From NCBI GenBank assembly GCA_903813345.2, contig CAIIXF020000001.1:9052001-9116000 (forward strand): a stretch of DNA of 64,000 bases, given 5' to 3'. How positions within the stretch are numbered: the stretch's first letter is position 1; the number at the start of each line of letters is the position of its first letter. Source of the stretch: Owenia fusiformis (taxonomy: Eukaryota). The translations under genes and the position numbers were made by a program. Positions 3,786 to 26,400 of this stretch are shown here, in pieces. Below the pieces are notes generated by a model. It saw nothing but the letters and a program-made list of their open reading frames with translations. It made no database searches and was not told where the DNA came from.

Positions 3786-3797
3786 CTCCTCCCATCC
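3786..3797 (-). other. Polypurine tract (PPT)
   Basis: Minus-strand GGATGGGAGGAG abuts the TGTAAC start of the 3' LTR. Confidence 0.9.
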
Positions 3798-4765: not shown

Positions 4766-7700
4766 TTAAATTTTCAGACTGGCATACCTAGTGACCAGAG
4801 TTTCATCCTCGAGGACGCTTCCATCTCTGGCGTAGTAACGGAATCTTATCTCCATCTTGATAGGGTTGTTTACTGTGCCCTTCTTATAAGGCTCATACTC
4901 CTCTGTTTCGACGTCCTCCTCCTCTAACCTTTCTAATACTACTTTGGCTGTTTTGGTTATTTTCTTACTCTCATCCTCATCTGAACTGGTCTCAATAATG
5001 GCAACACTTTTTGGCTCTTTCTTTGACTTTTTTCTCGGGGCACTCTTTGGCTTGGGTTTCGGGGATTTTCCCTTATCTTTATTCAGAACATACTCCTTCC
5101 CTTCCCCAATTGGTATAACAATTCTACTGTCCCCCTGACTATCGACCTTCTTGGTCCCAGTATGTTTTCCCTCTTTCTCTTTAGGTTCTACCCTCTTCCC
5201 CCATACTATGGGTGACTTACTGGCCGCCGTTGTCACAGTGTTTGAAGCCATGGTGGTAGTCGTAGAGGGTAATGCAAGGGGATCCTTAGTAACACTCTGG
5301 GAACTCACAGAACTTGTTTTGGAGGTAACTACTGAAGTCTTGGGTACAGTGGTGCAAGGAACACTCGTGGGAGTAGGGCGTGTCCCAAGGGAAGTTACAG
5401 GGGCCTTAGAAGTGACAGGGGTTACTTCAGGTGACGTTGCATGATTCTTAGAGACAATAGGGGCTGGGGCAACTACCTCAGGGGCGCTCATTAGAGATGT
5501 AGGTGGGGCCCCTAGACTAGCAGAGGGTGGAGGGAATTGAGGTCTCTTGACATCAGAAGCGGATTGCCATGTTTGTAACAACCCACTAAGTTGCTCCATG
5601 AGATTAAATCCTGTGGGTTCCTGGACTGTCGCTATGCGTTCAACTGGGAGGGAGTCTTTACTAGAGGACCTCGAAGGCCTATCCCATCGGGCGAACTTAT
5701 CCACCTTACCACTATCACTACTATTCACTCTACGCTCCTTACTGTCTCTATCTTTACGATCATTGCTTCTGTCTCTATGGTAATCCCTACTATCTCTATC
5801 TTCTCTACTGTCTCTATCTCTACTACGGCCCCTACGATCATTGTATCCATACCGGAACCTATCACCACGGTCACCGAATCTTGGTCTTGGCCAATGGGAC
5901 ATCTTGTCTTCGACCCTGGAAGCACATAAAACAGTATTTAACTCATAATCACACAAGCGTTTTGGGGGTTTCCGGACCCTCCTTCCCCACCCTTTTGATT
6001 GGCCCATAGAATCTGTACCACCCTGTTCACCCTCAATCACTCTCTTATTTTTAGACTTACTACACCCTTTTTCCTGTGTTTCACTATCTGCATCAAGTAT
6101 CACTCCTTTTTCCCTCATTTGGACTTCTCCTCGGTCGCTAGGCTCACATTTTTCATCTCTCGGCTCAGTTTCATATAACTCCACATCCATCGGGTCTGTT
6201 TTCACCTCTTTATTCATTTTGGTCTCGGGTGGGGTCGGATCATCATCATGGAGTATTTTGTCCTCAGTTTCATCACTGTCCACTCTCATCTTTTCTCTCT
6301 GTTTCATCTCGGACGAATCCAAAGTCATTGGGTCGGATGGAATCTCCTCCAACTTCAGTTTGGTCTCATCCGAAGGTATTTTCCAGTCTTCTGGAAGTTG
6401 GCTCTCGTATGGTTTGAGTTGATCAAAATGGACCACTTTGGGTGTCCGCTTTCCCCACTCACAGATGCGATAGGTGACATCAGACATCTTCTGCAAAACC
6501 TGAAATGGACCTAACCAACGACATTGCAATTTAGGAGAAATACCTCTTTTCTTGTTATTGTTTAAGTACCATACTGCATCACCAGGATTATATCCTTTAC
6601 CAACCACACGTCGATCATAAACATCTCGTTGACGGATTGCTGACTTTTTTAACACCCTGCTTGCCCTTTCATGAGCATCTTTCAGGCCTTGTCGAAGTTC
6701 AATCACATAGTCTGTCTTCATTTCTTCACATTGTGGATCCTCTATCATCCAAGATACTGGAACAGATAATTCCCGCCCAAACATCATCATAGCTGGCGTT
6801 TCCCCGGTAGCATCATGTGTAGATGTGCGATACGCCATGAGAGCAAATGGAATCTGTACATCCCAGTCAGACTGATGGACCTCGGGTTGCAACAACTTAG
6901 CAATAGTGTCAAGTAAGGTCCTGTTATATCTTTCGACCATCCCGTCACTCTGTGGGTGGAAAGGGGTGGTTCGGGTCTTGTGTATCCCCATCAACTTGCA
7001 GACTTCTTGAAAAACATGAGATTCGAAGTTCCGACCCTGGTCGGAGTGCAAGTCTGCGGGAACTCCGAATCTACACACAACTTCTGTAACCAGCTTGTCT
7101 GCCACTGTAATGGCTTCTTGGTTAGGAAGGGCAAAGGCTTCTACCCACTTGGAAAAATAGTCAGCACACACCATGATCACCTTGTTCCCTCTAGACGTCT
7201 CGGGAAATGGTCCTAATATGTCCACTGCATACCTCTCCATGGGACTACTTACCCCTTGTATCTGCAATGGAGCTCTTCTGGCTCGCAGAGGTTTTCTTCT
7301 CTTTCCACACGTGTGACAGGTTCGCACGACCCCTCTGACATCAACCCTCTGTTCGAACCAATAAAATCTCTGCCTACTTTTCAAAAAGGTCCTACGGATT
7401 CCAAAATGCCCCGCTACCTTGTTAGTATGACACATTTCTAGAACAACCAGCTTCATCGGGGATGGTACAACAATTTGCAAATGACCATGCTCTCCACTTG
7501 CATCCTCCCATCTTTTACAAAGTACATCCTTGTGAATTTCTAGCTGGTTCCAAAGGTGCCAATAATGTTTGGTTGCTGGTGAGTTAAAACTGATTTTATC
7601 CCAAATAGGCCTAGTGTTAGAGGAACGCAACGCCTCTAATATGGGCTGTATCTCAGGGTCCTGTTCCTGTGCCTCTGCAATCTTTTCCAACGTCCAAGTT

Positions 7701-10700
7701 GGTTCAATAGCAACCATAGCAACTTGTAATTGAGACACATCTTCTTGTTGAGCTACCTCATCACAGTGAGAACACTGTGTACAGGGTCTCCGAGACATAA
7801 CATCGGCGTTGGCATGTCGTGGTCCAGGTCTGTACTCCAATTGAAAGTTGTATTCTTGAAGCACCTCTAACCATCGAGCCAATTGTCCCTCTGGGTTCTT
7901 AAAATTCGTCAACCATCTCAAGGATCCATGGTCTGAGCGAATGGTGAATCGTACACCATATAGATATTGACGAAAATACTTCGCGAAGTGCACCACAGCC
8001 AGGAGTTCCTTCCTGGTTACACAGTAGTTTAACTCTGGTCCATTTAGTCGGTGACTGGCATAATATATAACTCTTTCTTCGTTGTCTTGTATCTGGGATA
8101 AAACAGCGCCAACAGCTTCATGACTGGCATCTGTGTCCAATATGTAGGGACAATCATCCCTTGGAAAAGCCAAAATCGGTGCTGTAGTTAACCTTTCCTT
8201 TAAAGTAATGAAGGCTTCTTCAGCTTCAGAGTTCCACATAAACCTCTGGTTCTTCCGTGTTAACTTGTGCAAAGGTCCTGCTATTTCAGCAAAGTTTTTA
8301 ATGTGTCTCCTGTAATATGATGCTCCTCCCACAAACTGCCGGACCTGCTTGACAGTCTTTGGAGTGGGATATTGTAGCATAGCTTCCACTTTCTTGGGAT
8401 CGGGTGCAATGCCCTCCCCTGAAACTACATGCCCTAAGTAGTTTACCTGTGTCTGAAGTAGAGTACACTTCTTTGGTTTCAACTTCAATCCAGCTCTACG
8501 TAATCGCCCAAATACCCCTTCTAAACGTTTTAGAGCTTGTTCAAATGTAGGGGAGAAAGAAATGACGTCATCCAAGTAAACTAAGGACCCTTCCTTGTTC
8601 AATCCGCTAAGGACTTCTTCCATCAGTCTACAAAAAGTAGAGGGTGCGTTTGCCAAGCCAAATGGCATTACAGCCCATTGGAACAGTCCCCCTCTCACAG
8701 TAAATGCAGATTTTTCCTGTGCTTCTTTGTCAAGTAATATTTGCCAGTAACCACTGGCTAAATCCAGGGTGCTGAAATACTTTGATCCATTCATCATGTC
8801 TAACGTTTCGTCAATCCGGGGGATAGGAAAAGCATCTTTCTTGGTAACGCTATTGAGCTTCCTATAATCCACACAGAATCTCCAAGACCCGTCCTTTTTC
8901 TTTACTAATACAATGGGCGATGCCCATGGACTCTGTGATGGCTTAATTATACCTCGTCGCAACATGTCTTCAATGAGCTCATTCACTTCATCTTGTCGAC
9001 TTCTGGGCAACATTCGGTATCTTTGTCGAATAGGAGTAGTATCCCCTGTATCAATGTTGTGTTCTACTAATGTAGTCCTCCCCAAATCATCATCACTTTG
9101 GGCAAAGATATCCTTATTTCCTCTTAGTAGCTTCTGTAATTGATCTCTCTGGGTCTGATTAAGTCCACAAGAACTCCGTTCAAACAAGTCCTGCATAAAC
9201 TCTGGTAATGGCAAAAGTGAATCCTCAGTCCCTTCTGAACCTGTAAGCGGGCAAATTATTTCTTCAGTGACTTTATCGAGATCTACTTGATAGGTGTCCT
9301 CATCTACAGAGGTAATGACTCCTAATACAGCCCCTTCGGGAATGGATATTTCAAAGTCATTGTGATTCCTTACTTCCATATAACTACTTTGACTTGTATC
9401 AGCTAAGGTTGTCACAATTTCGAGTTCTTCTAAATCTTCGGCATCTAAATAAGGTTCAATAATACCCATCCCAGTGAGTGGCTCCTTCCATTGAACTTCA
9501 ATAAATTGACCAGAAAAGGCAGGTAAGATCACTTCATGGGCAGCATTATAACATAACGAAGATTGTCGTGGATCAAACATTTGCCTTAAATCTGATAATA
9601 TATCGTCCTCCAACTCTAAACTTTCTGGTGTATTAGGAGGCGTTTCTGGAATGATGATTGGAGTAGCTGGAGGGCTATCAGGAAATCGCATTCCTTGTTC
9701 AGGTGATGGAGTTTCAGGTACAAGTATATATTCCAACTGTTCCCTGGCATCTTCAAAATCCTGAGAATCCTCAGAGTCCTCCATACTCTCCTCAGGAATA
9801 GATGAAGGGCTATCGGGGAACTGGATCCTGGCTACAGGTGGGGTTTGTGTGGTACCTTTAAATTTTGCTCTCTCTTTACAACTGGATCCACTATCAACTG
9901 ATTCCACTTGTTTTCCACAAGCCTCAGAGATAAAATCATCTGCTTTTAGATCAGAACTGTAACTCTTATCCAATTTGGCCATTGACCCCACACTGCAACT
10001 TCGAGAATTGTCTGTTTCCCTCGAATTCAACTTCATTTCAGCATCCTCATAACTGTCTGTTGAAATATTGGGTTTGTCCTTGGTCCCAAAGCTAACTGTG
10101 CATCGGTGGTAGTCCACTATCGCGCCTGATGCAGAAAGATAGTCACTTCCCAAAATTCCTTCGAAGTCAATTGGGGCTACTACAATCTCCAACTCCTCTT
10201 CATGTCCATCGATACTCACCTTACCGAATATGGCTCCTAAAGTGGCCAATGGTTCCCCATCAGCCTGCAGCATAATATGAGTAGCTGGTATAAGTTTAGG
10301 ACGATAGCGAGGGTTCATCCTTCTGTAAACTTCACTGTTTACAATGGTGCGTGCAGCACCAGAGTCCAACAAAAAGGCTACCTCTGCACCACAAACATCA
10401 CCATGAGCGATAACTTTACGGACATCTTTTGGGGACTCATTCTTTGAAACATCTCTCCCAAAATGAGAGAGGAATTTAACTGGAGCGGCTTGGCGTGACT
10501 CAGCTTGTGCTTCTTTAGCTCGCTCCTCCATTCGCTTCCTGCTATAACACTCTGCAATAACATGACCTGGTTTATGGCAGAAAAAGCACTCCAATTTTCT
10601 GTATCGACTTCCCTTTATTTCGCAATTGGTCTTCGGATTATCACCATCAGACTGGATTTTCGTCTCCATCAGCTGAATCCTCTTCTCCAGATTTTTGCGG

Positions 10701-12559
10701 TCTTGTTCAGCATTTTTACGATCTTTTTCCAGGTTTTTTCGATCTTCCTCTTGCTTGTTGCCTAATTCCTCTAACAGCCTAGTGAGTTTCTTCAAATCAT
10801 CATCCTTGTCTTCTAAAGCATTAACACGGCTATATCTGGACTTTTGTCCTTTCCTCATTCTTTCCGATTCCACATAAGATTCTTCTCTCAGGGCAATTTC
10901 AATTGCCTTGTCTAACGTTGTGCATTCTTTATTATGTATTGCTCGGCGTATATCATCCTCCGCTATCGCCTGCTCAAAACTACGCCTTGCTAATCTATCC
11001 TGGGCTGACCTACTCATCTCAGGATATGCCAATGCTGTAAGTCGCCTGATATCCTGTCCTAAAGTCTGTAAAGATTCTTTTGGCTTCCTCATTCGCCCAA
11101 TTAGTTCGGCCTCATATACCTCTGCTTTTCCTCCAGGCCCATATCTTTTCTCCAAGGCTAAAACCAATTGATCATACGTATACCCAGCTTCCATTTCCAA
11201 CACGATTTGTTGGGCAGTCCCCCGCAGACTGGTAGCTAAGTACTCATTTTTCTCTTCTGTGGTCCAACTGTTGGCCTTAGCACATATTTCAAAATGGGCT
11301 CGATACTCCTGCCAAGGAGTAGTGCCATTATATGTCTCCGGCTTGATCCTATTCTTGGAATTGGACATCTGGTTAAACAATTTCATAAGGTCCATGGAAT
11401 CACCAGGTATATTATTATCAACCTCTCTTTTCCTCTCACTAGTAGAATCATCTCTTGAAGAACGCGTTTCAAATCTACCTTCAACTTGACGTATCCCGTT
11501 ATCACTCCCATATTCATGCTCCATCCGTTGACCTCCCATCCTGTGCATAGACTGGCCTCCTGAAGCACAAACGTCCTCTTGCTTACAGGCAGGATCTCGC
11601 TGGTCTCTACCAGTTGATTTCTGTGTAGGAGTGACATGAATTCTGTCTTGTCTTTCCAGTTTCCATGGTTTCATTCTTGATGGAGTAGGAGGTTCAGGTG
11701 TAAAACAATCTGTGTTCTGCGGACAGTGCCTCATGGGCAAAGGAGGTGACCGTTGTGCTCCCCTTCGAGCTCCACTTGGAGTTGCATACAAATCATTACC
11801 AATAGCATTCCCTGTATACAAAACACCATTGGACTTGGTCTCTGTACTAACTGCTACTGTAGTACTCTGTATATGCTGCAGGATCGCCTGCAACTGATGA
11901 TCTTGTTTCTCCTGTCTTTCCTGTTGTCTTTCTTCGCTTATTTGTCGTTTTTCTTCTCTTATTTGTTGTTGCTCTTCTCTAATTTGTTGCATATGTCTGT
12001 TCTCTTCCATTTGCTTTGCTATTAGAGTCATACTATGAGTCTGTATTTGTTGGGTCTCTTTAATATCATCCAACTGTTTCTGTTGCGCCTCTGTAACATT
12101 CCCAAAAACAGACATCTGATCTCGCAACTGACCTTCCACCATAGTTAACTCTTGTTTCACTATATCCTCTGTCTGGCTCTTTTTCAAAGGCCGATTCATA
12201 ACAGTAGAGGTTATTGGAAAATGTCTGGCAGTATTCCTTTTATCCAATCCCAGGGGATTTGCTGGAGTCTCTAGATTAGTCAATCCTCCTCCAGACCAAT
12301 ACCCTGTAGTTACATTGCTGGGTAAAACTCTTTTCTCAGTATCCACCTTTGGATCCTTTGATCTAGCGCCTGCACCAAGAGGGGCCTCCTTTGATGCATC
12401 AGAAAATGTGGCGCCATCTTTGTCCAATGGCTGAGTTGTATCATTAGCTCCCGGATTATTTATTTCCATTGGATTTGTCTTCATGAATACAGTAGTCTCC
12501 CCTTCAATCTCTATATCCTCATCATCCATTGGATAGGGAAGATTGGACTCTGGATCCAT
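4766..12559 (-). CDS. Gag-Pol polyprotein, 2597 aa: capsid, CCHC knuckle, aspartic protease, RT, RNase H, integrase with GPY/F motif, plus a long C-terminal extension
   Basis: PETYNGTTPWQEY..HFE capsid; CFFCHKPGHVIAEC; LLDSGA; YLDD; LDTDAS; H..H..CHTC; AVDILGP / SDQGRNF / GMVERYNR; WLGPFQV...VHFDQLKPY. Confidence 0.97.
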   Translation of the reverse strand: MDPESNLPYPMDDEDIEIEGETTVFMKTNPMEINNPGANDTTQPLDKDGATFSDASKEAPLGAGARSKDPKVDTEKRVLPSNVTTGYWSGGGLTNLETPANPLGLDKRNTARHFPITSTVMNRPLKKSQTEDIVKQELTMVEGQLRDQMSVFGNVTEAQQKQLDDIKETQQIQTHSMTLIAKQMEENRHMQQIREEQQQIREEKRQISEERQQERQEKQDHQLQAILQHIQSTTVAVSTETKSNGVLYTGNAIGNDLYATPSGARRGAQRSPPLPMRHCPQNTDCFTPEPPTPSRMKPWKLERQDRIHVTPTQKSTGRDQRDPACKQEDVCASGGQSMHRMGGQRMEHEYGSDNGIRQVEGRFETRSSRDDSTSERKREVDNNIPGDSMDLMKLFNQMSNSKNRIKPETYNGTTPWQEYRAHFEICAKANSWTTEEKNEYLATSLRGTAQQIVLEMEAGYTYDQLVLALEKRYGPGGKAEVYEAELIGRMRKPKESLQTLGQDIRRLTALAYPEMSRSAQDRLARRSFEQAIAEDDIRRAIHNKECTTLDKAIEIALREESYVESERMRKGQKSRYSRVNALEDKDDDLKKLTRLLEELGNKQEEDRKNLEKDRKNAEQDRKNLEKRIQLMETKIQSDGDNPKTNCEIKGSRYRKLECFFCHKPGHVIAECYSRKRMEERAKEAQAESRQAAPVKFLSHFGRDVSKNESPKDVRKVIAHGDVCGAEVAFLLDSGAARTIVNSEVYRRMNPRYRPKLIPATHIMLQADGEPLATLGAIFGKVSIDGHEEELEIVVAPIDFEGILGSDYLSASGAIVDYHRCTVSFGTKDKPNISTDSYEDAEMKLNSRETDNSRSCSVGSMAKLDKSYSSDLKADDFISEACGKQVESVDSGSSCKERAKFKGTTQTPPVARIQFPDSPSSIPEESMEDSEDSQDFEDAREQLEYILVPETPSPEQGMRFPDSPPATPIIIPETPPNTPESLELEDDILSDLRQMFDPRQSSLCYNAAHEVILPAFSGQFIEVQWKEPLTGMGIIEPYLDAEDLEELEIVTTLADTSQSSYMEVRNHNDFEISIPEGAVLGVITSVDEDTYQVDLDKVTEEIICPLTGSEGTEDSLLPLPEFMQDLFERSSCGLNQTQRDQLQKLLRGNKDIFAQSDDDLGRTTLVEHNIDTGDTTPIRQRYRMLPRSRQDEVNELIEDMLRRGIIKPSQSPWASPIVLVKKKDGSWRFCVDYRKLNSVTKKDAFPIPRIDETLDMMNGSKYFSTLDLASGYWQILLDKEAQEKSAFTVRGGLFQWAVMPFGLANAPSTFCRLMEEVLSGLNKEGSLVYLDDVISFSPTFEQALKRLEGVFGRLRRAGLKLKPKKCTLLQTQVNYLGHVVSGEGIAPDPKKVEAMLQYPTPKTVKQVRQFVGGASYYRRHIKNFAEIAGPLHKLTRKNQRFMWNSEAEEAFITLKERLTTAPILAFPRDDCPYILDTDASHEAVGAVLSQIQDNEERVIYYASHRLNGPELNYCVTRKELLAVVHFAKYFRQYLYGVRFTIRSDHGSLRWLTNFKNPEGQLARWLEVLQEYNFQLEYRPGPRHANADVMSRRPCTQCSHCDEVAQQEDVSQLQVAMVAIEPTWTLEKIAEAQEQDPEIQPILEALRSSNTRPIWDKISFNSPATKHYWHLWNQLEIHKDVLCKRWEDASGEHGHLQIVVPSPMKLVVLEMCHTNKVAGHFGIRRTFLKSRQRFYWFEQRVDVRGVVRTCHTCGKRRKPLRARRAPLQIQGVSSPMERYAVDILGPFPETSRGNKVIMVCADYFSKWVEAFALPNQEAITVADKLVTEVVCRFGVPADLHSDQGRNFESHVFQEVCKLMGIHKTRTTPFHPQSDGMVERYNRTLLDTIAKLLQPEVHQSDWDVQIPFALMAYRTSTHDATGETPAMMMFGRELSVPVSWMIEDPQCEEMKTDYVIELRQGLKDAHERASRVLKKSAIRQRDVYDRRVVGKGYNPGDAVWYLNNNKKRGISPKLQCRWLGPFQVLQKMSDVTYRICEWGKRTPKVVHFDQLKPYESQLPEDWKIPSDETKLKLEEIPSDPMTLDSSEMKQREKMRVDSDETEDKILHDDDPTPPETKMNKEVKTDPMDVELYETEPRDEKCEPSDRGEVQMREKGVILDADSETQEKGCSKSKNKRVIEGEQGGTDSMGQSKGWGRRVRKPPKRLCDYELNTVLCASRVEDKMSHWPRPRFGDRGDRFRYGYNDRRGRSRDRDSREDRDSRDYHRDRSNDRKDRDSKERRVNSSDSGKVDKFARWDRPSRSSSKDSLPVERIATVQEPTGFNLMEQLSGLLQTWQSASDVKRPQFPPPSASLGAPPTSLMSAPEVVAPAPIVSKNHATSPEVTPVTSKAPVTSLGTRPTPTSVPCTTVPKTSVVTSKTSSVSSQSVTKDPLALPSTTTTMASNTVTTAASKSPIVWGKRVEPKEKEGKHTGTKKVDSQGDSRIVIPIGEGKEYVLNKDKGKSPKPKPKSAPRKKSKKEPKSVAIIETSSDEDESKKITKTAKVVLERLEEEDVETEEYEPYKKGTVNNPIKMEIRFRYYARDGSVLEDETLVTRYASLKI

Positions 12560-12604
12560 CCTAAATCAGTATAATGCACCTCGGGCTTATATCTTCAGAC
12601 AATT

Positions 12605-12623
12605 AATCCCACCACTGCCACCA
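12605..12623 (-). other. Primer-binding site complementary to the tRNA-Leu 3' end
   Basis: Minus-strand TGGTGGCAGTGGTGGGATT is the complement of ...AATCCCACCACTGCCA-CCA, the metazoan tRNA-Leu(TAG/AAG)-type 3' end. Confidence 0.9.
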
Positions 12624-13105
12624 GTGTAACAGTTTGGCCTTTTTTGTGGATATGTGGTAGTGTGGCTAATAAAAAGACCACTGTTTAGTAAACGGTGTTT
12701 ACTTGTGGATTGCACGGCACACGTTAAATGTGCTTTGTCCCTAAAGAAATAAACAGAATATATAATTTTATATATATATAATACAAAACAATATATTGTG
12801 GCGTTTATAAGCCCAAATAAGATGTACATGCAATTTCAAATGTAATGTAAGAATATTACGGTGTTATTATTTCTCTTAAAACTCACAACTCAAAAGTCCA
12901 TATGAGCTAATAATAATTATCACTGATAAAATAATATCCAGAGTCCATATAAACTGATGATCACTATATAACACTGTTGTATTCCGAATATGCAAAGTTC
13001 ATGTAAATTGTACCACTTGTACGTCTTGTATTGTTATTGTATCTTGAACCTGGAATAGTAAGCTGAGCGTAACAAAGTCTTGTCTCCTAATTTTGGGAAG
13101 CAACT

Positions 13106-13312
13106 TTACACAAAATTCATAGTACTCATGCTGAAGCTTGGTGTGGATTTTAAAGCAGGGGTTGGCGTAGGGGGTATTGGAACTGCTGGAACAGGCGCTT
13201 CTTCGTTTTGAATCTTAATACACACCTGGGAGCATATGACTGACATCAGACATAAAAGTACAAATAAAATTCCACCCACGACCAAGATGATGAAGGGGAT
13301 ATCCAGTTCCAT
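13106..13312 (-). CDS. Putative 68-aa single-pass membrane protein encoded inside the LTR (the second copy starts at 59 and runs off the window)
   Basis: MELDIPFIILVVGGILFVLLCLMSVICSQVCIK...PVPAVPIPPTPTP: ~22-aa hydrophobic segment, three juxtamembrane Cys and a Pro-rich tail; more GC-rich than the surrounding LTR. Confidence 0.55.
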   Translation of the reverse strand: MELDIPFIILVVGGILFVLLCLMSVICSQVCIKIQNEEAPVPAVPIPPTPTPALKSTPSFSMSTMNFV

Positions 13313-13385
13313 CCACTGTAAACTCAGCAACTGTCTTGTGTCTTGCTTCCAATGAAAATACTGATTCTCTTCATGTTGTTGTAGT

Positions 13386-15634
13386 ATCCTCCACTGTGTT
13401 GTAGTATAATTCAACTTTGATTATGCGAAATAATCTAAGTCAAACTATCGGCTCTGTAAATGGCTATCTCCTGGATCCTCCTTAATGTGTTGTAGGATAA
13501 TTCAACTTTAATTATATGAAATAATCAAAGTCAAACTATCGGCTCTGTAAATGGCTATCTCTTGGATCCTCCTCACTGTGTTGTAGGATAATTCAACTTT
13601 AATTATATAAAATAATCAAAGTCAAACTATTGGCTCTGTAAATGGCTATCTCCTGGATCCTCCTCAATGTGTTGTAGGATAATTCAACTTTAATTATATG
13701 AAATAATCAAAGTCCAACTATCAGCTCTGTAAATGGCTATCTCCTGGATCCTCGTCACTGTGTTATAGGATAATTCAACTTTAATTATATGAAATAATCA
13801 AAGTCAAACTATCGGCTCTGTAAATGGCTATCTCCTGGATCCTCCTCACTGTGTGGTAGGATAATTCAACTTTAATTATATAAAATAATCAAAGTCAAAC
13901 TATTGGCTCTGTAAATGGCTATCTCCTGGATCCTCCTCAATGTGTTGTAGGATAATTCAACTTTAATTATATGAAATAATCAAAGTCAAACTATTGGCTC
14001 TGTAAATGGCTATCTCCTGGATCCTCCTCAATGTGTTGTAGGATAATTCAACTTTAATTATATGAAATAATCAAAGTCAAACTATCGGCTCTGTAAATGG
14101 CTATCTCCTGGATCCTCCTCACTGTGTTGTAGGATAATTCAACTTTAATTATATGAAATAATCAAAGTCAAACTATCGGCTCTGTAAATGGCTATCTCCT
14201 GGATCCTCGTCAATGTGTTGTAGGATAATTCAACTTTAATTATATGAAATAATCAAAGTCAAACTATTGGCTCTGTAAATGGCTATCTCCTGGATCCTCC
14301 TCACTGTGTTGTAGGATAATTCAACTTTAATTATATGAAATAATCAAAGTCAAACTATCGGCTCTGTAAATGGCTATCTCCTGGATCCTCGTCAATGTGT
14401 TGTAGGATAATTCAACTTTAATTATATGAAATAATCAAAGTCAAACTATCGGCTCTGTAAATGGCTATCTCCTGGATCCTCCTCAATGTGTTGTAGTATA
14501 ATTCAACTTTGATTATGCGAAATAATCTAAGTCAAACTATCGGCTCTGTAAATGGCTATCTCCTGGATCCTCCTCACTGTGTTGTAGGATAATTCAACTT
14601 TAATTATATGAAATAATCAAAGTCAAACTATCGGCTCTGTAAATGGCTATCTCCTGGATCCTCGTCAATGTGTTGTAGGATAATTCAACTTTAATTATAT
14701 GAAATAATCAAAGTCAAACTATCGGCTCTGTAAATGGCTATCTCCTGGATCCTCCTCAATGTGTTGTAGTATAATTCAACTTTAATTATATGAAATAATC
14801 AAAGTCAAACTATTGGCTCTGTAAATGGCTATCTCCTGGATCCTCCTCACTGTGTTGTAGGATAATTCAACTTTAATTATATGAAATAATCAAAGTCAAA
14901 CTATCGGCTCTGTAAATGACTATCTCTTGGATCCTCCTCAATGTGTTGTAGTATAATTCAACTTTAATTATATGAAATAATCAAAGTCAAACTATTGGCT
15001 CTGTAAATGGCTATCTCCTGGATCCTCCTCACTGTGTTGTAGGATAATTCAACTTTAATTATATGAAATAATCAAAGTCAAACTATCGGCTCTGTAAATG
15101 GCTATCTCCTGGATCCTCCTCAATGTGTTGTAGGATAATTCAACTTTAATTATATGAAATAATCAAAGTCAAACTATCGGCTCTGTAAATGGCTATCTCT
15201 TGGATCCTCCTCACTGTGTTGTAGGATAATTCAACTTTAATTATATGAAATAATCAAAGTCAAACTATCGGCTCTGTAAATGGCTATCTCCTGGATCCTC
15301 CTCACTGTGTTGTAGGATAATTCAACTTTAATTATATGAAATAATCAAAATCAAACTATCGGCTCTGTAAATGACTATCTCTTGGATCCTCCTCACTGTG
15401 TTGTAGGATAATTCAACTTTAATTATATGAAATAATCAAAGTCAAACTATCGGCTCTGTAAATGGCTATCTCCTGGATCCTCCTCAATGTGTTGTAGGAT
15501 AATTCAACTTTAATTATATGAAATAATCAAAGTCAACTATCGGCTCTGTAAATGGCTATCTCCTGGATCCTCCTCACTGTGTTGTAGGATAATTCAACTT
15601 TAATTATATGAAATAATCAAAGTCAAACTATCGG
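13386..15634 (-). repeat. Tandem array of 25 x 91-bp hairpin units in the 5' LTR
   Basis: Same units, same variant order and same 1-bp deletion as the left array. Confidence 0.97.
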
Positions 15635-16324
15635 AATTGACAAAGTTTACGAACGTCTTATATGGCATCAACTGCTAAGTACACAAACTTCCTTCACAAT
15701 TAAGTAATCAGCCTACCTAAAAATATAGCATGCGCACAACAGCATAGGCAAAAATATTACAAGTCAAAATATGTGCCCTTGAAAATAACTAAGTTCAGTT
15801 AATGTTGAGTTATACTGATATTGAAATATCCTAAGTTCAATATTTATTCTCCAAAAAACAACAAAGTCCAAAATAATGTTTCTCCAAATATTGACTAAGT
15901 TCAATAATTTCTATCTCAAAAATAATCAAAGTCCAATTTCATGTGTTCATGAAATTGAACTGACAGAGCTCAGAAATCTAGTATAGGCTTGATGCTGCCT
16001 CCAAACACGGTACTGAATATTCCCTCTTGAGGTATCCTCTACACAAATACACGGGTAGATGGCCAAGTTATCATCTACAGAATCACGGTGTAGCAGTCTT
16101 CCCTCTCAGGTATCCTTCATCACAAGTAGATGTCCAAGTTATCATCCACTGAACTAAGTGCAGCTATGTATCTCCTATCTGCCTCGGGAAATATTCAAAG
16201 TCCCAACAACTTTCTACTGAAAATTGTCAAAGTCCAAAAATATTTCCTTGAAAAATGACTAAGTCCAACTTCACATAAAAATATGAAATTGAAACGGAGC
16301 TCTGTCCCGAACGAAAGCTAGCTG

Positions 16325-16400
16325 TAATCTGCTGAGCGCTCTCAGCTTGCTGCTTATATACCCAGCAGCGGTGCGGCGATGACGTCATCCACTTGTTTAC
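16325..16400 (-). promoter_or_regulatory. Probable LTR core promoter (copy at 3072..3147)
   Basis: Minus-strand TATATAA at 16360..16354; perfect CRE palindrome GATGACGTCATC at 16378..16389; forkhead site TGTTTAC at 16394..16400. Confidence 0.65.
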
Positions 16401-18070
16401 ATCAAATTCCAACTTCATATGATTGCAAGCTAAATAACGCCAAAATTACTCCCAAACATGAAATATAAATGAATTTAAATTACAGAGACATGAAATATAA
16501 CAACAATTATGCACAGAATGACATAATAAAGAAGCTTTAATGAGTTAAAGTTATCCTCATGAATTTAATTCCAAAATGGCCTAGCGCCGCAATTCTCAAC
16601 TTGATCTCTATATATCTCGAAAAGTATACGCTAATTCTATTCCAAAGTTACTCAATCAAAACTTGAGATCGTTAGTTATACTAATCTATCAAAACTATAT
16701 AGAAATAAAGGCAAACTAACCTGTATTGGAACGATATGAGGGGACGATTCAAAATGCCGCACTAAAAACGTTGGTGGTGGTTACTGGATGTCAACTACCC
16801 AAACGTGAAACGAAAACACTAATTATATTGAAAATATACGAAATGACCGGAAGTAGCCAGTTAAACATGATAAACAATTCACATACACAATTGTTAGACC
16901 AAGTAGGAATAAAAATAATTGCCCAAATATGTGTATAACTAGCAAGCTCAACTATAACCGGGGAGATTGCTGATGAAGTGCTGAAAACCTCCAAATACTA
17001 AGACCATAAAATTTTTAAAAAAAAAATAATTTGTTACAGTCAGGAGTAGATAACTGGGCCAGACGGGTTTGGTTAGATTACAGCCTGTATGAAACTGAGT
17101 ATGCTGTTTGATTTGGTTTGCCAAATTGCCTGTATTTCATTAAATGATAACTGACTTACCGGATGCAAATACTCCGAGTGTCAAATATAACACACATGAG
17201 ACCACAAACACCCCTAGCACAGCTTTGAACCGAGACATCTCTGGTGTATTCTTTAGGTTTGTCGCAAACTGCTGAAAAAATTCTTGTTTATTTTTTCGAA
17301 ATTCATAAATTTAATGTTTTTCAATGCTTCCGTTCGGTCTATGACGTTTTACCTTCTAATGCACATTCACTGGCACCTCTTCTACATTTAACTCGTTTGG
17401 AATGTGATGATATGTGTTCTAAAGGCCTGTTTTATCATAAAATATGATGAAAATTTGATGAATCAGAAAATGACGAGGAACTCACCAAAATAATAACCTT
17501 ACAACGGGTGTTACTAAATACCACCTAGGTGTCCCCTTGGGCACCTGGATTTATAATTCCATTTTAAACCACGTACATATTTTATATATAGTATTTCCTT
17601 TGTCACATATTAACTTGACATATAATAGACTTGAAAAAATAATTTGTAGTCGAGAATATTGCAAAGAAGATTCGAAAATAAAATGTCAAAAGTTTTATTA
17701 TTAGAAAAATGGGCACCTGGAATTTTGTTCATATGTATGGTCACTTATTTATAGTAATAAAACACCATTTATGCTCAAGTGTGCATTTATATTTGAAATA
17801 TATATATTATTCTTACTTTAGTTGCCAAAATAGTGAATTTGTAGCATTTTAAAGTGAGCAAATAATGAAATAGATTTCTATTATCCTAACAAATGACTTT
17901 TTCGATAGGCCGCGCCTGGAGAGCCTTAAAATTTAAGGCTCTCTAGCCAAATGGGTTACCAAAATGCTAAAGAGCCTTAAATTTTAAGGTTCTTTAGCAT
18001 TTTGGCTAAAGAGCCTTAAATTTTAAGGCTCTTAAGGATTTTGATAGCCAATTCTGCTAGAGAGCCTTAA

Positions 18071-18473
18071 GGTACAGCTGGAAAGTAACATTTTGGTAAA
18101 AAATTGCTATACCTGCACATGTTATTTTCTGGTACAAAATAAAGTATGAAGGCATGTATCAATTTCCTTGCTTTTTTCAGGAAAGTATCATTACATTGTC
18201 TTCTTTTAGAATATCTGGTAGACGTTCAAAGGGAACTCCAGGGAATTCTGATATTTCACACTTCCTGTTTTTCCAAATTTTCTTTCAAAGTTTCCAGACA
18301 ACACAGGAGCTACCATTAAACTGTTTCCAGGTTTACTAAAAGTAGACAGTGTAATGATACTTTCCTGAAAAAAGCAAGGAAATACAAACTGCCTTCATAC
18401 TTAATTATGTACCAGAAAATAACATGTGCAGGTATAGCAATTTTTTACCAAAATGTTACTTTCCAGCTGAACC
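18071..18473. mobile_element. Foldback MITE with TTAA target site (Kolobok/piggyBac-type)
   Basis: Inverted arms longer than 100 bp, GGTACAGCTGGAAAGTAAC... / ...GTTACTTTCCAGCTGAACC, flanked by TTAA on both sides. Confidence 0.8.
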
Positions 18474-19630
18474 TTAAAGGAATTCCAGGCGACAGAAATG
18501 ACGAAATATTGCTTCTGGGACAAGATCAAACGACTTTGACATATTCTATACCCAACCTATTTTGTAATTTAACAATCAGCACAAATATACATACCATATT
18601 AGCACATATCGGACAAATTCAAAAAGAAAATTTTTTTGATCGATAAAATCACTGATTATTAAACCGGAAGTGTCTTCTCTGAGGTCCGCGAAGATGAAGA
18701 AGATAACATATAAAGATTTCAGTCATTTCAACTAACTTTGCTGTCGATTTGATTTACATGGTTTTAAATGATCTTCTAATGCTTACTATGACTTCTATTA
18801 GTACTGTTTTGACTTCCCCACTTCATAAAAACATTATCACTTTTTGCTCGACTCATAAATTTACTTCCGGTCTACCGAGAGAAATAATGTTTTCAATCCT
18901 CAGTCTAAATTTGGCTTTTTAAAGGTTCAAACATCGATTTTGAAAAGTAAATGTTTGTTTGTTTGATGTTCATGCATATATCGAAAATATATGTCTCTGG
19001 TTCACCAGAGAACGTGTAAGACCAGGCAATCACGTATAGCCAGAAAATGTTATTTTTTCCATTTTATCCACTATAAATCGCAACGTCCGTTTAGTAAAGA
19101 TTTTGATGTACAGTATAGACATTTATTGATGGATTGGAGGCTAGGATGAAAATGTTGTTGTGTAAGCCGCTGTTTCCTCGATCGGCAGTTTACCTCTTGT
19201 ACTGTAAATTTTCTTTGTGCTCATGTGCTTTTAAAAATTCTCACTTGTGAGGAAAATATTATGCAAAAATATCTCGTTACGTGAAAAATTCTAAAATCAG
19301 CATTGAAATCTAATGGGCAATAGATTTGGAAGTGTATTCTGTGATGTCCCTGGGCTGATGTCCCTGCATTCACGATAAACTTCGTCAAGATGTGCTGATC
19401 TAGAAGAAACAAGATCCTTTTTCATCCCCAGGTCTTCATCATACTTTTTGCCATCTTAAAATGGGATTCCCTGTATTCTCGTGACTATAGCAAAGGCAAT
19501 ACAAGTGATTAATTTCATTAAACATTGATGATTGAGCGATAGAGCAAGCCCAAGACTTCTAGAAAAAATTGTGTACATAATTTCCGGACCTCAGAGAACA
19601 AACTTCCGGCTTGTTTTTCAAAATAAAAAG

Positions 19631-19700
19631 TGCTCCGTCGGGGAATCGGACCCACGCCGCAGGAGTGGAAAGCGAGCACCCTAACCACTATACCAGAGTG
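19631..19700 (-). pseudogene. tRNA-derived remnant (Glu/Asp/Gly-like; SINE head or pseudo-tRNA)
   Basis: A-box TGGTATAGTGG, B-box-like GGTCCGATTCC and a T-run downstream; acceptor and anticodon stems are broken. Confidence 0.55.
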
Positions 19701-20436
19701 TTTTACCATGATAGGATTAATTCTTTTGCAACCCTATAGTAATATACATGTGTGAAGTTTTTAAGTGGCATTCTGGGTTGAAAAACTTTCGAGAGTGTTG
19801 TTTTATTGTTTAGATGACGAAAACTTCAATAAAAAACAATATAAACACGGATTATAAACACAAAGGCTCTCTAGCCAAAACACTATGTTCACAGCTAAAT
19901 AGCCTTAAATTTTAAGGCTCTTTAGCATTTTAGCTAAAGAGCCTTAAATTTTAAGGTACTCCAGACACTTCGTTTTCGATATCGATCAAAATTTTCAAGA
20001 CAATTAAAAATATCATAAACAAACAGAAATATTTACACAAGTTCCAAGAAAATACTTTATTATGTAATACATCAACACTTGGAAAAATGTTAGCTTGAAA
20101 TAAAGTAGTAAAATATGCCGGTAAGGCATTTCAATGGGGACACCTAGGTGTGGGGCACCTAGGTGGTATTTAGTACAACCCCTTACAACTTCCGTTGTGA
20201 CAGAATCTAGTTCGAATTAAGGTAGTAACTATACAGATAAGTTATCTACAATGTACATATAAACATATGGGAAATTAATTTTCAAATGATGTTCAATTAA
20301 CAGATTTTATAATTAATACCTTAAATGACGTTTAAAGTAGCGGAATCTATGAGCGGAGTGATACAAATTTAAGTGCAATTCATCAAAAAGTGCATGCTGG
20401 GATACCTTTCATTGGCAAGGTCACTGATTTTTCGAA

Positions 20437-23400
20437 ATGCCAGATGAAGTGAGGAAGATTTACGGTAACGAGCTGTACCGAGAGTATCCCTCGTACACCG
20501 GAATCACCGGTAGATCCCATGATGCACGCAAATTCCAGAGAGTGCACTCTCCATTTTGGGATACCAAAGATGGCACTGATATGGCATATAAAGTGAAGGC
20601 CTCCACTTTCAGATTAGGCGGTCTGGGTAAGGACTACTATTTTTTTCATGGCCTGAGTTCGTCGCTAACATGCTAAATATAAGAGTTAGCTGACGTTTGA
20701 GAGTCTGACTTACATTCTAAAGGTTAGAACCCGAATGTTAATGAAACCATATCACCTTTGTTCCGTCAACCATGGAGCATTTGCCACAACATCCAACAGG
20801 TAAATCATGGACCGTGAAAATGAATGATTTCCTTGTAAGTTCCGGAAGTTTCAATACGAAAAATTACCGAACATATGTGAAAACCGAATATTTGTTCGTT
20901 GTTTTCACGATTTACAGGTTCGTTTGTTCTCCAATGTTTTGGTCTAAATTATAAAGCATCACCAACAGGTCTTACTCTATTAATCGACTAATACAGCAGA
21001 CGGCTCATATTTTTACGTAGCATTTCGTTCAGACCAATAGTGGGAGTGCAGATCATGCAGTTTCGTTCGTTGCATACTTCACTTGAAATTGGTAATTTTA
21101 AATATTGGCTACTTCACTTAGCTTGGCGGATGTATAACATTGCTTAATATTCTTTTAATTTTCACACCACTGTGCTTGGTTGACACGTCAACAAAGTAAA
21201 GTTCAAGGGTCAATGCGTTATTTCGTGATAACTACAACGCCTTCCCGGAAGTCAACATTAATGAAAAATGAAAAAGTCGGAAAAGCATTTACACTTACTC
21301 ACTTCGAGAGCCATGTTAGATTTTGAAACTTATGGCTCTCAAACGGAGAAGTGAACAGCTGATCAATAGTGACCTTTGAAACTGAATTAAGTCGATCCGC
21401 GGCTTACTTTTGGTCTCTAACTGTGTCTTACATCAGTATCATCAATCCGTGTAAGTATGGAGCGCTGGAGTACTTCTTTTTCGATCAAGACTTGTAAATT
21501 GTTCATCGAGTTAAAGTTTTACAGACCTATTTCCAATATGGCGGTTTGCTAGGTGCGAGATACGCAACGAACGAAATGAATTTTGAGAATTAGTTAGGTT
21601 CGGACAACCTCCGGAGATTTACGAAAATGTCCGAGCAGAAACCGCCATATTGGAATTTGGCAGTAAAACGATTTCCTCGACTAACAATTACAAGTCTTGA
21701 TCGAAAAAGAAGTACTCCAGCGCTCCAATACTTACACGGATTGATGATACTGATGTAAGACACAGTTAGAGACCAAAAGTAAGCCGCGGATCGACTTAAT
21801 TCGATTTCAAAGGTCACGATCATTGAGCTGTCCAAATGCTCCGTGGGAAAGCTATTATATCAAAATCCAAATAGCTTTCGCAGGAAGTAAATTTACACTA
21901 ATTTCTATCAAATGCTGTGTTTATGCATCATCAATGACTCAACAAAGGTGATATGGTTTCATTAAGATTCGGGTTCTAACCTTTAGAAGGTAAGTCAGAC
22001 TCCCAAACGTCAGCTAACTCTTATATTTAGCATGTTAGCGACGAAATCAGGCCATGAAAAAAATAGTAAGGCTTTCCTGCACAGGCAATGGAACATAGAA
22101 ATACCCCCCCCCCACTCTCTGTACATAAGTAAATAATAATAATTATTTACTTATGTACAGAGAGCGGGGGGGGGGGATTATTTCTATGTTCCATTGCCTG
22201 TGCTTTCCTGTATTTCTTCATCCTACAATATAGGCTAGTTCAAATCAATCAATAGTAGCCTACAACTTGTTGTAGATACCACTCTTCCACAATGTCATCT
22301 CATGGCAATTTTAAGATGTCATGTAGGCTAGAGACACTTTTGGCTTATCCGGTTTCATGACTCGGCCATGAAATACGATACTACAATATCGTAAATCTAC
22401 TGTATAATCTAAATAATGACCCAGTAAATAGTCATAGAGTCGCCTTATTGATGTTTTGGTGACTCTGTAAGACTGAAGTGTCCTTAGTAGAGTCCATTTC
22501 ACTGCTTCATTGCGTCAGTAGAACGGCAAAAATAAGAAATTGGGAGACCATTGTGCAATAATATATGGAAACGTATATTCATAATGTACATGAATGACAG
22601 ATTTTTTAGTTTTTTGTGCAATAAGCCTGTGCCGTCTTGTAATTTGAAGAATTTCAGCTATGTTATTCTTATTGAAAATAACATGGCAGAGAAGCATCCA
22701 AATATAAGAGGCCACACACTTTATAAGCCAAACTAGAAGCAATCCAAGATATACAAATGTCATTCATGTACAATAGGAATATATTTTTCCATATATTATT
22801 GCAAAAGGATATTTTGATTTCTTATTTTTTAACTTTTACTGACGCAGTTAAACAATGAAATGGACTCTAATTGAGTTAAAAAAATGACATTTACAAAAAC
22901 ATGGCAGCCATTTTTCATGGAGAGGCCAGATCAAAAATCCCCTTTCAAGCAGAGGTCCTACAACCACAAAATGAAAACCTTTAAAATTTGATTCGTCAAG
23001 GCGTCAACCGATAACCAGTATTAGAGATATCACCCAAACACACAGACAAACAATCAAATGAATGGTCAGAGATAACAATTTTTCTTCTTTATCCGATATT
23101 GTGATTGTGTACGTAACTTGACACTTTAATGCTGCCTTTTGTCACTTGGTACAGTATTTTCACTTTGTAGGAATAATCACTTGATACTTGTCACTTATAC
23201 TTGTTTATACATTCATTGAGAGAGCGCATTGATTGATAAGACTATTTTGGTAAAGAGTCACTGTCTCTATTGTGATGGTCGTTCATTGGTATAAAAGGAG
23301 ATAGCCTTATCCAGTAATTATAAGGGAATTGTTCATCAAAATCTAGCTATCCATATCAAAATGCAATTCACTGAATGCTTTCAAGTGGCATTCATTTCTT

Positions 23401-26400
23401 TTATTTATTATAGAGGTCATGGCAGCTACTCTTGCATGGTTTGTCTCTCAGTATTTCTATGCAAAAAGGGCAATGAGAATTCAGTATGCATACTTTTTGA
23501 CACTTTGGCTTAATGCCAACATAATACATTTTTCCTCTGTCAATATCTGATTATATTGTAATTTTTGATATATATATTGCAATATTATACATAGTTTGGG
23601 TAATTTTCTTAATGTACTGTACTGTATCAATTCTTTTTCTGTTAGCGATTGCCTGGTTCATCAAGCTACTCTTGGTATTGCTATTTTAGATTTGTTTTTT
23701 TTATGTTACAGGGGCTGTTATTGGCACATGTGACTGCCTCTTATATTCCCATCCTACTACATCCCTGGATGGAGCATTGAGAGTTGGAAAGTGGACAGGA
23801 TACATGGGTAAGTAGTGTCAGCATGCAACTTAAAATCAAAAATATGCATAATAAGATACTTCATGAACTGAATTATTATGCCACCACCAAACGTGGTGAC
23901 ATATTGTTATCCTCTCTGTTCTTTTTGGCTCACACAGTGAGCCTATGGGATCGACCAGGAGTCCGTCCGTTTGTCCATCCATCTGTCCGTCCGTCCATCC
24001 GTCCGTCAACATTGGCCTCACAAATTAAAACTGCTATTCGGATTGAGTCATTTCCACATTCATTTTATGCATATCCATAATGCTTATTTGACCTGTCATC
24101 ACCATTTCCCAAGTTCGCCCGTTTACCGAGAAATTGCTGATTTTGACTTCAAAAAGTCAAATTGTCTGTAAATACTAGACACTTTGTTGAAGTAGAACTT
24201 TCAAATAACTTGTAGTAGTTGCTGTTTATGCAACTTATGTCCTCTGAAGATTTCAAAGCTCTTTGAATTACAGTTTTTGGTGTTTACTCTATAAAATTTG
24301 ACAAAAAGTACGACTCATTTTCGGGAAACTTTCTCATGTATAAAGTCAATGGCAGGTTTTGTGATTGACAAGTTTCTCAAAGTTTGCCTTATACTCGATT
24401 ATTTCTTGCAATGAATTACATCATTACTAGATTTAAGCATTCCTTACATATTGCTCAATATATGTCAGCATCAAATTTTTACCGTTTTTGAGATATTTGA
24501 CGTCAAAAACCTGTAAAAATAAGTTATTTTTCAACTTGCTTCAGTTTGACCAAATTTTTTTTTTGAAAATCATCTACAAGTTGCCAGGAGTTCAAATCTG
24601 ACATTAGATTTAGGATTTGACCTTTACTTGACCTTCAGTGACCTTCAAAAGGTCAAAAAAGTTGATTTTTCAAATTGATTTTTGGATGTAAATTTTGGTC
24701 AGCTTAATCACAAAAGACCTTACTGAGCTCTGAACAAGTAAAATTTTCAAGGTCAAAGGTGATCAAACTAGGTCACACAACTGTGCTATCTAAGTTTCTC
24801 GAATACAGTTCTAAGTTCGAAAATACAAATCCAAATCAATATTTTTGTTTGAAAGTCAGGATATACATTCCTCTGAAGGTTCCAAACTGTGTGAGCATAG
24901 GACCGTGGGTCCTTCATTTATGGCGCTTGGCGTCTGTAGCAAATTCTTACAACTTCCAATAACTTAACAAATACTGTTTAGACTGACTTAAATTTTTTCA
25001 AAATCATCTACAAGTTTTCAGAAGTTCAAATCTGACTTTATATTTAAAATTTGACTTTCAATGACCTTCTCAAGGTCAAAAAAGGTCAAAACGTTTTTTT
25101 TCAACTTGACCAAATCTTTTTTCAAAATCATCTACTAGTTCTCAAAAGTAATTAGATGGTGACATTTTGTCATGTTAATGCCTTGTTTTAAGTATTTAAT
25201 ATACTAGGCATATATAACAAATAAAAATGAAAAGACTAGATCTTAGTGAATAATGCAACTTACCAATATCCTTGTGAGAAAATAACTATAGAACCTGTGT
25301 TTCAACTTCTGAATCTTCTGATACAAGTCACGTCACAAAGACTGAGATTCAATTCAGATATGGATACATTTTGAGTGTTTGATTGTCTTGGATTTTTTGT
25401 AAACATTGCTTTTTGCCTAACACAATTTTTTTTTAATTTGAAATGAATGATAAGATTTCTTATTTGAGATGACACATACATGTTTATGTTCCAGCTTTGG
25501 CAGGGGGCATGTACTCTTCTGCAGTTGGGCTTTTAGCAAATCTGAGGAATGAGGATGGACCAGTCAATCACATGCTTGGAGGAGCAATGATGGGATCAGT
25601 TGCTGGAATGGCTGGTAAGTATTCATTTGTGAATTTTATGGCAGTGTTCGCATTGACGCCGTTTTTTCTCATTTTTACGGAAATTTCAAGAGGTCGGACG
25701 GGAAAATCAGAAATAACTTACGTCCCTGGGACGCAAAGATTCTACACCACCATCAGGTAACTTTTACTGCAGCGTAGAAGTGATAAAACATGATTTTCTG
25801 AAGAATTTTCAAATCGTCTACTTCCTTGATCTCAATAATGTTTATGTCGGCAAATCTGATTGGCTACCGGAGTGTCACAGTATATTCGCGGGGTTTCTAG
25901 TCTGAAACACAGCATTTGATTGGCTATGGTGCCCTCCGAGTCATTCCGGAGTATACCGAAGCTGGATTATCTGTTGTACGCAAACATTAGTTTCAAAATT
26001 GAGAATTGAGACTTGTTTTTCACGATAATCTTAGTTAAAGTGTCTTTCTATGACTTAGAAGGAGAAATATGAGATTTCGAGCCATATATCTCAAGAAAAT
26101 GCTCTTACCTTTCTAGTAGGATGAGTTCAGGTGCCAAAAACAGCTGATCAAAGGATATATATCATTTTCTAATTGAAAATTTTTGTTGAGCCCTGCATTT
26201 TTAACACTGTTTTGACAGGAAGTCATACCCAAAATGAAAACTGAATAAAACAACACTTATCCTAAATGTAGATCAAAATACTTACTCAGATATGCAAAAT
26301 GTTATTATAAGTAGTAATGCTGATCATTTCTAAGAAATTTAAGCATATAAATAAGACTTTTTCAATCCTTGATTATATAGATAAAGAATTTCTTCATTTT

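Follow-up and report, generated by a model that had tools for sequence, protein, structure and literature searches.

A 91-bp tandem array inside the LTR of an intact, very recently inserted Ty3/Gypsy retrotransposon folds into 25 hairpins that are complete only as sense RNA, and RNA reads from the array fall strongly on one strand. Both the hairpin array and its strand asymmetry are real. When selection on the hairpin was weighed against copying from one chance seed, no dedicated function was indicated. The account we prefer, to which we give about an even chance of being right, is a retrotransposon-borne minisatellite, possibly a satellite seed, transcribed from the LTR.

An intact Ty3/Gypsy element carries the array

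The element is about 17.7 kb long and occupies the minus strand of the window, by which we mean the whole 64-kb stretch of DNA analyzed. It has the TG...CA LTR ends, the domain order protease-RT-RNase H-integrase, and the primer-binding site (PBS) and polypurine tract of a Ty3/Gypsy retrotransposon. Read on the minus strand, the 5' LTR (12625 to 17038) begins with TGTAACA at 17038 and closes with TGTTACA at 12625, and a PBS-like TGG run, TGGTGGCAGTGGTGGGATT (12605 to 12623, minus strand), follows 1 nt past its inner end; the LTR is thus 4,414 bp long. The 3' LTR (1 to 3785, minus strand) is cut by the start of the window, with about 628 bp missing, and is abutted by the polypurine tract GGATGGGAGGAG (3786 to 3797, minus strand). 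The LTR pair is 100% identical across all 3,785 shared bp (1 to 3785 versus 13254 to 17038).

Gag-pol is encoded in one open frame of 2,597 aa (4766 to 12559, minus strand) with a CCHC knuckle, protease, RT, RNase H, and integrase. Its Pfam matches fall in order: Asp_protease_2 (720-807), RVT_1 (1219-1378), RT_RNaseH (1471-1570), Integrase_H2C2 (1698-1756), and rve (1772-1869). An earlier note on this DNA had placed the array in the LTR of an intact Gypsy element, and the identical LTRs, open frame, and ordered domains agree with that. The nearest protein relatives in a large protein collection, mostly animal, are only 35-57% identical, so protein relatives yield no close family member; the host would thus be an animal whose own copies that collection lacks. 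We found no further copies of the element in the window (0 blastn matches of the element to 17039-64000). The 3' UTR of the same element holds a separate 69-bp repeat. In addition, a frame of 102 codons in the LTR tail (13106 to 13414, minus strand) runs out of the last unit of the array and includes a transmembrane-like stretch; it matched no Pfam family, and Atlas gave just generic transmembrane look-alikes with scores below 0.9.

The units fold as hairpins on the sense strand

Tandem Repeats Finder placed the array of the 5' LTR at 13387 to 15634 (minus strand; LTR positions 1405-3652), with a period of 91, 24.7 copies, 96% matches, and no indels. The array of the 3' LTR (134 to 2381, minus strand) is identical to it. 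The units stand head to tail, at a fixed place in the element and identically in both LTRs, as in a minisatellite.

On the minus strand, the unit has the sequence given in the earlier note and forms 20 contiguous pairs, 16 Watson-Crick and 4 G-U, exactly the stem composition that had been claimed for it; the G-U pairs are at 5-41, 8-38, 9-37, and 15-31. A consensus-type hairpin with the 20-bp stem and a 5-nt loop lies at 15043 to 15087 (minus strand). We folded both strands against shuffles, and the asymmetry was present at both lengths. A single 47-nt hairpin reached -18.8 kcal/mol on the minus strand (z -7.9, 0/200 shuffles as good) versus -5.3 kcal/mol on the plus strand (z -1.7, 13/200 shuffles as good), and three units (273 nt) gave z -6.3 on the minus versus z -0.5 on the plus. 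Every one of the 25 units gave the hairpin when its minus strand was folded (-13.4 to -18.8 kcal/mol), with little folding of the plus strand (0 to -6.8); this upholds the earlier description of 25 hairpins complete only as sense RNA. The variant described for units 1 and 13 from the left (starts at 13449 and 14541) also proved correct: a G-U pair becomes G-C with an adjoining A.A mismatch, and the minimum free energy is -13.4.

Rfam returned 0 matches at E values up to 1 on both strands of 12000-17500, so neither a hammerhead nor any other known motif is present in this region. The sense strand of the array contains no ATG, and the opposite strand contains two per unit.

A comparably one-sided hairpin is found outside the array

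Since the units are 96% alike and are copies of one seed, the 25 hairpins represent one event and not 25 independent ones. For background, we took the 57,874 positions that remained and folded a 47-nt window at each, on either strand. This gave 76 loci at -15 kcal/mol or better, 16 of them at -18.8 or better. The strands differed by at least 10 kcal/mol at 4 of the 76 stable-hairpin loci and by at least 13.4 kcal/mol at 2 (near 22078 and 22160), and the array unit differs by 13.5. A comparably one-sided hairpin occurs about twice per 58 kb without any array.

An analytic estimate agrees with this background. If 12/18 of the variable sites are transitions and either orientation is equally likely, the four mismatches have a chance of about 0.01 of all being G-U in sense. 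Across orientation chances of 0.5-0.65 per pair the value spans 0.01-0.04, the upper figure allowing for a sense strand rich in G and poor in C (GC skew of +0.10 to +0.35 across the element versus +0.015 in the rest of the window). Given that the feature was picked after the fact, the one-sided G-U pattern is suggestive and not decisive.

Transcription of the array is strongly strand-biased

A search of sequencing runs returned 24 runs from one organism and six studies. The stretch is contained in 20, and 12 of those have at least half its words; none of the indexed runs containing it is an RNA run. We mapped three raw stranded RNA-seq runs (X21, X22, and X23, chosen by species label) and a DNA run (X1) on 12000-13590.

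All three RNA-seq runs confirmed transcription of the array, with a strand bias of 14-28:1. Over 13404-13565, the depth of first mates on the plus versus the minus strand was 98-141 versus 6.6-9.3 in X21 (about 14:1), 91-139 versus 4.1-5.2 in X22 (about 26:1), and 77-107 versus 2.0-4.0 in X23 (about 28:1). Strand-biased reads span the unit junctions ("goes back" joints), placing tandem hairpins on one transcript. The first mate is opposite to the RNA in most stranded libraries, so the array RNA is probably minus, that is, sense. Sparse gag-proximal reads (12000-12161; X22 and X23) point the same way as the array reads, and the sense assignment fits with this shared direction. Some doubt about the RNA strand comes from a TA-rich tract, TATATATATAAAA (12764 to 12786), a potential TATA on either strand, which may be a plus-strand TATA about 30 nt before coverage begins. 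On balance, the array RNA is very probably in the sense orientation. RNA depth over the tract itself is about 0, but the tract is masked. We rejected a splice or transcript end as the reading of the coverage gap at 12756-12809, since the TA-rich tract was masked in mapping.

The LTR tail (12972-13349) is covered in the same direction as the array, at depths of about 11, 6, and 14 in X21, X22, and X23. The corresponding array-to-tail ratios, about 11, 21, and 7, fit LTR-type transcripts, for which a ratio of about 11 is expected if 25 units collapse on about 2 reference units. RNA depth declines from 12970 to 12810 and is low in both directions at 12594-12755, and the start of gag (12162-12539) has zero depth in all three RNA runs. 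Nine X23 reads continue past 12625, where the LTR ends, and their flanks vary. The LTR end is about 40 times deeper than gag in the DNA run, so the transcribed LTRs are probably mostly solo or from defective copies. For that reason, little can be concluded about this copy from the absence of reads reaching gag.

A promoter upstream of TATAAG is the better candidate

The earlier note had set the array downstream of a TATA box and predicted its transcription. TATAAG is present at 15657 to 15662 (minus strand), about 25-30 nt ahead of the first unit, and the array is transcribed below a plausible LTR promoter; this much of the claim stands. The part given to TATAAG does not, since RNA reads from the first unit extend upstream through it (4 reads in X21, with a median of 58 further letters, and 5 reads in X23). 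A DNA contig shows the same junction of first unit and TATAAG as the RNA reads. Because reads cross it, TATAAG is not the sole start, or is no start at all.

TATAAG is also not the best promoter candidate of the LTR. The stronger one combines a CRE-like motif, TGACGTCA (16380 to 16387, minus strand), the only one in the LTR, with TATATAAG (16353 to 16360, minus strand), which follows it by 20 nt and lies 700 nt upstream of the array. Outside the array, TATAWAW occurs only at TATATAAG and in the TA-rich tract at 12764-12786. From this candidate we infer a start near 16333. The predicted leader from there to the gag ATG would be 3,775 nt long with 19 upstream ATGs, 0 of them in the array. The mapped region (12000-13590) showed no read-start pile-ups. 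Most likely, then, the array lies in transcribed R or U5, read from a promoter other than TATAAG.

By DNA word depth, the unit far exceeds the element

In the DNA run, word depth, which is not a copy number, was 165,000-442,000 over the array, 968-2,983 over the LTR tail, and 227-830 over gag; by this measure the array stands at about 200 times the tail and 1,300 times gag. With a DNA ratio of about 200 between array and tail, against 7-21 from RNA and an expectation of about 11, units seem to be far more numerous than LTRs of this kind can account for. At place 13488, 13 reads in X21 and 9 in X22 show the unit transcribed in another upstream context, whose sequence is absent from the 64-kb window. 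Reads mapped on 12000-13590 showed no long array outside an LTR. Scans with unit patterns gave 0 matches in public metagenome contigs and 0 in viral contigs.

The main subtypes of the unit differ at positions 14, 24, 25, and 31, all in the hairpin apex and none in the linker. In the array of the window, 23 of the 25 units have the perfect stem (-18.8 kcal/mol) and 2 are of the A14 type (-13.4). Among RNA units, hand-summed on two reference units from first-mate-on-plus reads, the share with A14 (the A.A mismatch) was 48%, 59%, and 53% in X21, X22, and X23, and that with C31 (G-U to G-C) was 54%, 64%, and 53%. The A14 type makes up about 65% of the depth in DNA run X1. If the stem were conserved and the linker free to drift, the reverse of these apical differences would be expected.

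Loose ends at place 13443 (6 reads in X21, 3 in X22; hand-decoded) reveal a third unit type that has diverged further. It has two one-base deletions in the 5' arm and an A.C mismatch in the lower stem; its apical helix is preserved by a change on both sides of one pair (U18-A28 to G18.U28), which again can pair only as sense RNA. Read from these decoded sequences, the change is a hint of compensation, the single one seen.

Variation in the stem resembles unconstrained change

Within the array, variable sites number 4/38 in the stem, 3/5 in the loop, 2/2 in the terminal pair, and 9/46 in the linker. Stem and linker do not differ significantly (Fisher p=0.37), and the terminal pair of the stem shows no covariation among the array units. 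Stem variants are of five kinds. Pairing is lost in three (T lost at 8, T8 to G, and T14 to A) and preserved in two, both opposite a G (C11 to U and U31 to C). Such a pattern is expected of unconstrained change.

The claim that the array is a functional element rather than a neutral minisatellite is therefore not borne out: the stem is no less variable than the linker by this test, three of the five kinds of stem variants break pairing, 48-59% of pooled transcript units carry the A14 mismatch, and the subtype differences are all apical.

A proposed retrotransposon-borne minisatellite

In the account we prefer, one 91-bp seed with a chance 45-nt imperfect palindrome would have given rise to 25 copies within the transcribed portion (R or U5) of the 4.4-kb LTR of a young, intact Ty3/Gypsy element. 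The most likely route would be template switching or mis-registered strand transfer in reverse transcription, or unequal exchange. The LTR promoter, most likely the CRE-like motif with TATATAAG near 16360, would drive sense RNA through the array, and the hairpins would exist as RNA for that reason. They would ride as passengers, although they may pause reverse transcriptase and so feed change in copy number. Were the array in R, first-strand transfer in the wrong register among the 25 units could alone shift the copy number. The four sense G-U pairs would be due to chance, aided by the G-rich, C-poor sense strand, and the unit would have spread well beyond intact elements as a high-copy tandem repeat. 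Of this account, the anatomy, fold, strand asymmetry, transcription, abundance, and subtypes are observed, and the start site, the route of amplification, and neutrality are inferred.

Several findings count against a neutral reading. On the sense strand, every one of the four non-Watson-Crick pairs is a G-U (the chance of 0.01-0.04 given above), the third unit type has the two-sided change at 18-28, the young intact copy has 23/25 perfect stems versus a genome pool that is about half mismatched, and the sense strand of the array is free of the ATGs found twice per unit on the other strand. It might also be that surviving reverse transcription as a 2.2-kb direct-repeat array needs selection. 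An RNA-level role is a real possibility because of the one-sided G-U pattern, the two-sided change, and the richness in perfect stems of this active-looking copy; we consider RNA-level constraint on the hairpin somewhat less probable than its absence.

Alternative explanations

The array could be a selected sense-RNA device of an active retrotransposon, with 25 stems in a leader or R region of at least 3.5 kb that would either mask the poly(A) hexamer of each unit, and thereby let transcription pass through a giant LTR, or serve as a multivalent sponge or decoy for dsRNA-binding defence proteins, the perfect-stem subtype being kept in mobile copies. We regard this device as unlikely.

Somewhat less likely still is a cis-acting RNA element, with hairpins that would work in the long leader or R region of genomic RNA. 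The stems might hide 23 AUUAAA poly(A) signals so that the polymerase reads through, or the array might be a docking scaffold for export or packaging. Masking of the hexamer would be the most concrete version of an RNA-level role, by analogy with HIV-1, in whose R region a poly(A) hairpin masks the poly(A) signal. There too, a poly(A) hexamer sits inside a hairpin of the repeated or leader RNA of a retroelement; the HIV-1 case differs in being one hairpin with a function established by mutagenesis, whereas here 23 copies of a variant hexamer are seen in the sequence. ATTAAA lies at unit positions 29-34, within the 3' arm of the stem, in 23/25 units, and the subtype without it (T31 to C) also bears a stem mismatch. 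However, such a hexamer is expected by chance in an estimated 1 in 8 AT-rich units. The only AATAAA on the LTR sense strand outside the array, a motif match, is at 15843 to 15848 (minus strand). A cis-acting role would suit the sense-specific hairpin, the sense-biased transcription with reads running on through the units, the richness of a young active copy in perfect stems, and the one two-sided change at pair 18-28. It is opposed by the lack of significant stem conservation and by the predicted 3.8-kb leader with its 19 upstream ATGs, and since 0 reads went on into either the PBS or gag, no part in genomic RNA was observed.

The G-U pairs could instead be scars of strand-specific mutation on a once better palindrome, leaving a stem that is real as RNA and unselected. 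Candidate processes are A-to-I editing fixed by reverse transcription and a transcription-associated excess of A-to-G and C-to-T changes. All four wobbles can be written as sense A-to-G or C-to-T, and the sense strand is G-rich. In the RNA runs, this copy compared with others in the sense direction showed A>G at 10-11 and C>T at 10-11 places versus T>C at 3-4 and G>A at 5-6, and in DNA run X1 the counts were A>G 10 and C>T 4 versus T>C 1 and G>A 1; these differences are unpolarised. This copy is also the odd one out at several tail sites, and a 20-bp AU-rich stem is a marginal substrate for RNA editing. On balance, such scarring is improbable.

Two further proposals fare slightly worse. In the first, the array would be a source of small RNAs or a decoy for dsRNA-binding proteins, a transposon-borne counterpart of hp-CG4068, and the tandem hairpins on a single strand-biased transcript would suit it. 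Drosophila hp-CG4068 gives 20 tandem hairpins from one transcript and Dicer-2-dependent siRNAs (PMC10317233), a precedent that would make it the nearest working analogue for the small-RNA idea. The two share about 20 tandem hairpin units on a common transcript, and the copy number of hp-CG4068 shifts fast between species (PMC10317233). It differs as a locus of the host that serves gene silencing, has a known target, and yields siRNAs dependent on Dicer-2, whereas the array here has a 20-bp stem inside a retrotransposon LTR. Neither arm matches elsewhere in the 64-kb window at up to 3 mismatches, the element's own genes included, and the Rfam search over the region had 0 matches. Drosha and Dicer normally process stems longer than 20 bp. 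Because the stem is only 20 bp and no target was found in the window, we disfavour the small-RNA proposal and hold it to be quite improbable. Animal miRNA precursors have basal flanks and stems of at least about 30 bp; at 20 bp, the stem here speaks against one.

In the second, which we rate equally low, the array would act as DNA, a multimerised block of binding sites (enhancer or insulator) in the transcribed leader. The subtype differences (14, 24, 25, and 31) are apical and none is in the linker; at the apex, one subtype has TAATTA and the other TAATC, both candidate homeodomain-type cores. Read by eye, each unit also has a TATA-like TATAAT about 30 nt before CA(G/T)T. The units show no pile-up of read starts, and a DNA block gives no reason for 20-nt arms or for four G-T mismatches all on one strand. 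The 5' UTR of Drosophila gypsy carries a Su(Hw) array, 12 short sites for a zinc-finger protein. It resembles the present array in layout, as a repeated module in the transcribed leader of a Gypsy-type element, and differs in working as DNA and having no hairpin.

Relation to known repeats and significance

On present evidence, the array belongs to the known tandem repeats borne by transposable elements, with features that are unusual and testable. In Ty3/Gypsy Ogre elements, short internal tandem arrays expand into satellites, which is ascribed to abnormal strand transfers (PMC7004042), and minisatellites arising from LTRs have been described (PMC6947457). Like these Ogre/Tat 3' UTR arrays and LTR minisatellites, ours is a short head-to-tail array in a non-coding part of a Ty3/Gypsy element. 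As with Ogre/Tat, the unit appears far commoner in the genome than the element interior (here by word depth), with a likely origin in aberrant strand transfer. Unlike the Ogre/Tat arrays, it lies within the LTR itself, apparently downstream of the promoter and in an animal genome, its unit is a sense-RNA-specific hairpin, and the element adds the separate 69-bp repeat in its 3' UTR. In a record-level survey of the literature, no paper described hairpins arrayed within an LTR.

Tandem repeats within LTR retrotransposons are a known source of satellite DNA. Here, such an array is seen in an element that looks mobile today, with identical LTRs and an open frame, inside an exceptionally long LTR and covered by real transcripts. 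If the hairpin is selected, the array would be a rare multimerised structured RNA module in a retroelement leader and could help to explain how LTRs of great length deal with poly(A) signals inside them. Without selection, the array would be a clean example of a chance palindrome becoming a genome-wide repeat.

Sequence features of the LTR

The sense (minus) strand of the Ty3/Gypsy retrotransposon is G-rich and C-poor over the whole element (window 3786-17038), with a GC skew of +0.10 to +0.35 versus +0.015 in the remaining window. Both LTR copies also contain 2.0 tandem copies of a 65-bp unit (15831-15958 and 2578-2705), placed downstream of the predicted start site and upstream of the array of 91-bp hairpin units. 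The only AATAAA of the LTR outside the array falls within this repeat.

A minus-strand open frame of 102 codons (13106-13414) extends out of the last 91-bp unit; its predicted product has a stretch resembling a transmembrane segment and a tail rich in proline. We sought a family for this frame and found none. RNA reads over it are sense-biased, at a depth of about 10-15.

At the LTR end, approximately its last 300 nt (12594-12917), DNA word depth reaches 8,000-24,500, compared with 970-3,000 in the adjoining LTR tail; this measure is summed depth in one DNA run and not a copy number. RNA reads here run in both directions. The LTR end seems to be common to a more abundant repeat family or to many solo LTRs.

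Internal region of the element

Downstream of integrase, the polyprotein continues for about 540 residues rich in Ser, Thr, Lys, and Arg (residues about 2060-2597, window 4766-6380), in which no Pfam domain was found. A second tandem repeat of the element, a 69-bp unit in 4.2 copies with 70% matches (4201-4489), is located in the 3' UTR, after the pol stop codon and before the polypurine tract. Plant Ogre/Tat elements carry hypervariable repeats at this same position.

Features outside the element

In the region of about 22078-22210, a symmetric hairpin (22116, -27/-28) has a strongly strand-asymmetric hairpin on either side, and these two are opposite in polarity (22078, minus -18.5 versus plus -4.5; 22160, plus -17.4 versus minus -4.0). 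Farther along, a tandem repeat with 123/228-bp periods (48548-49055) is dense in TGACCT/AGGTCA motifs. Two intronless, paralogous GPCR-like frames lie in tandem on the minus strand (43178-44559 and 46612-47949). The right-hand one runs uninterrupted for 445 codons; the left-hand one, possibly a pseudogene, is split between two frames that overlap.
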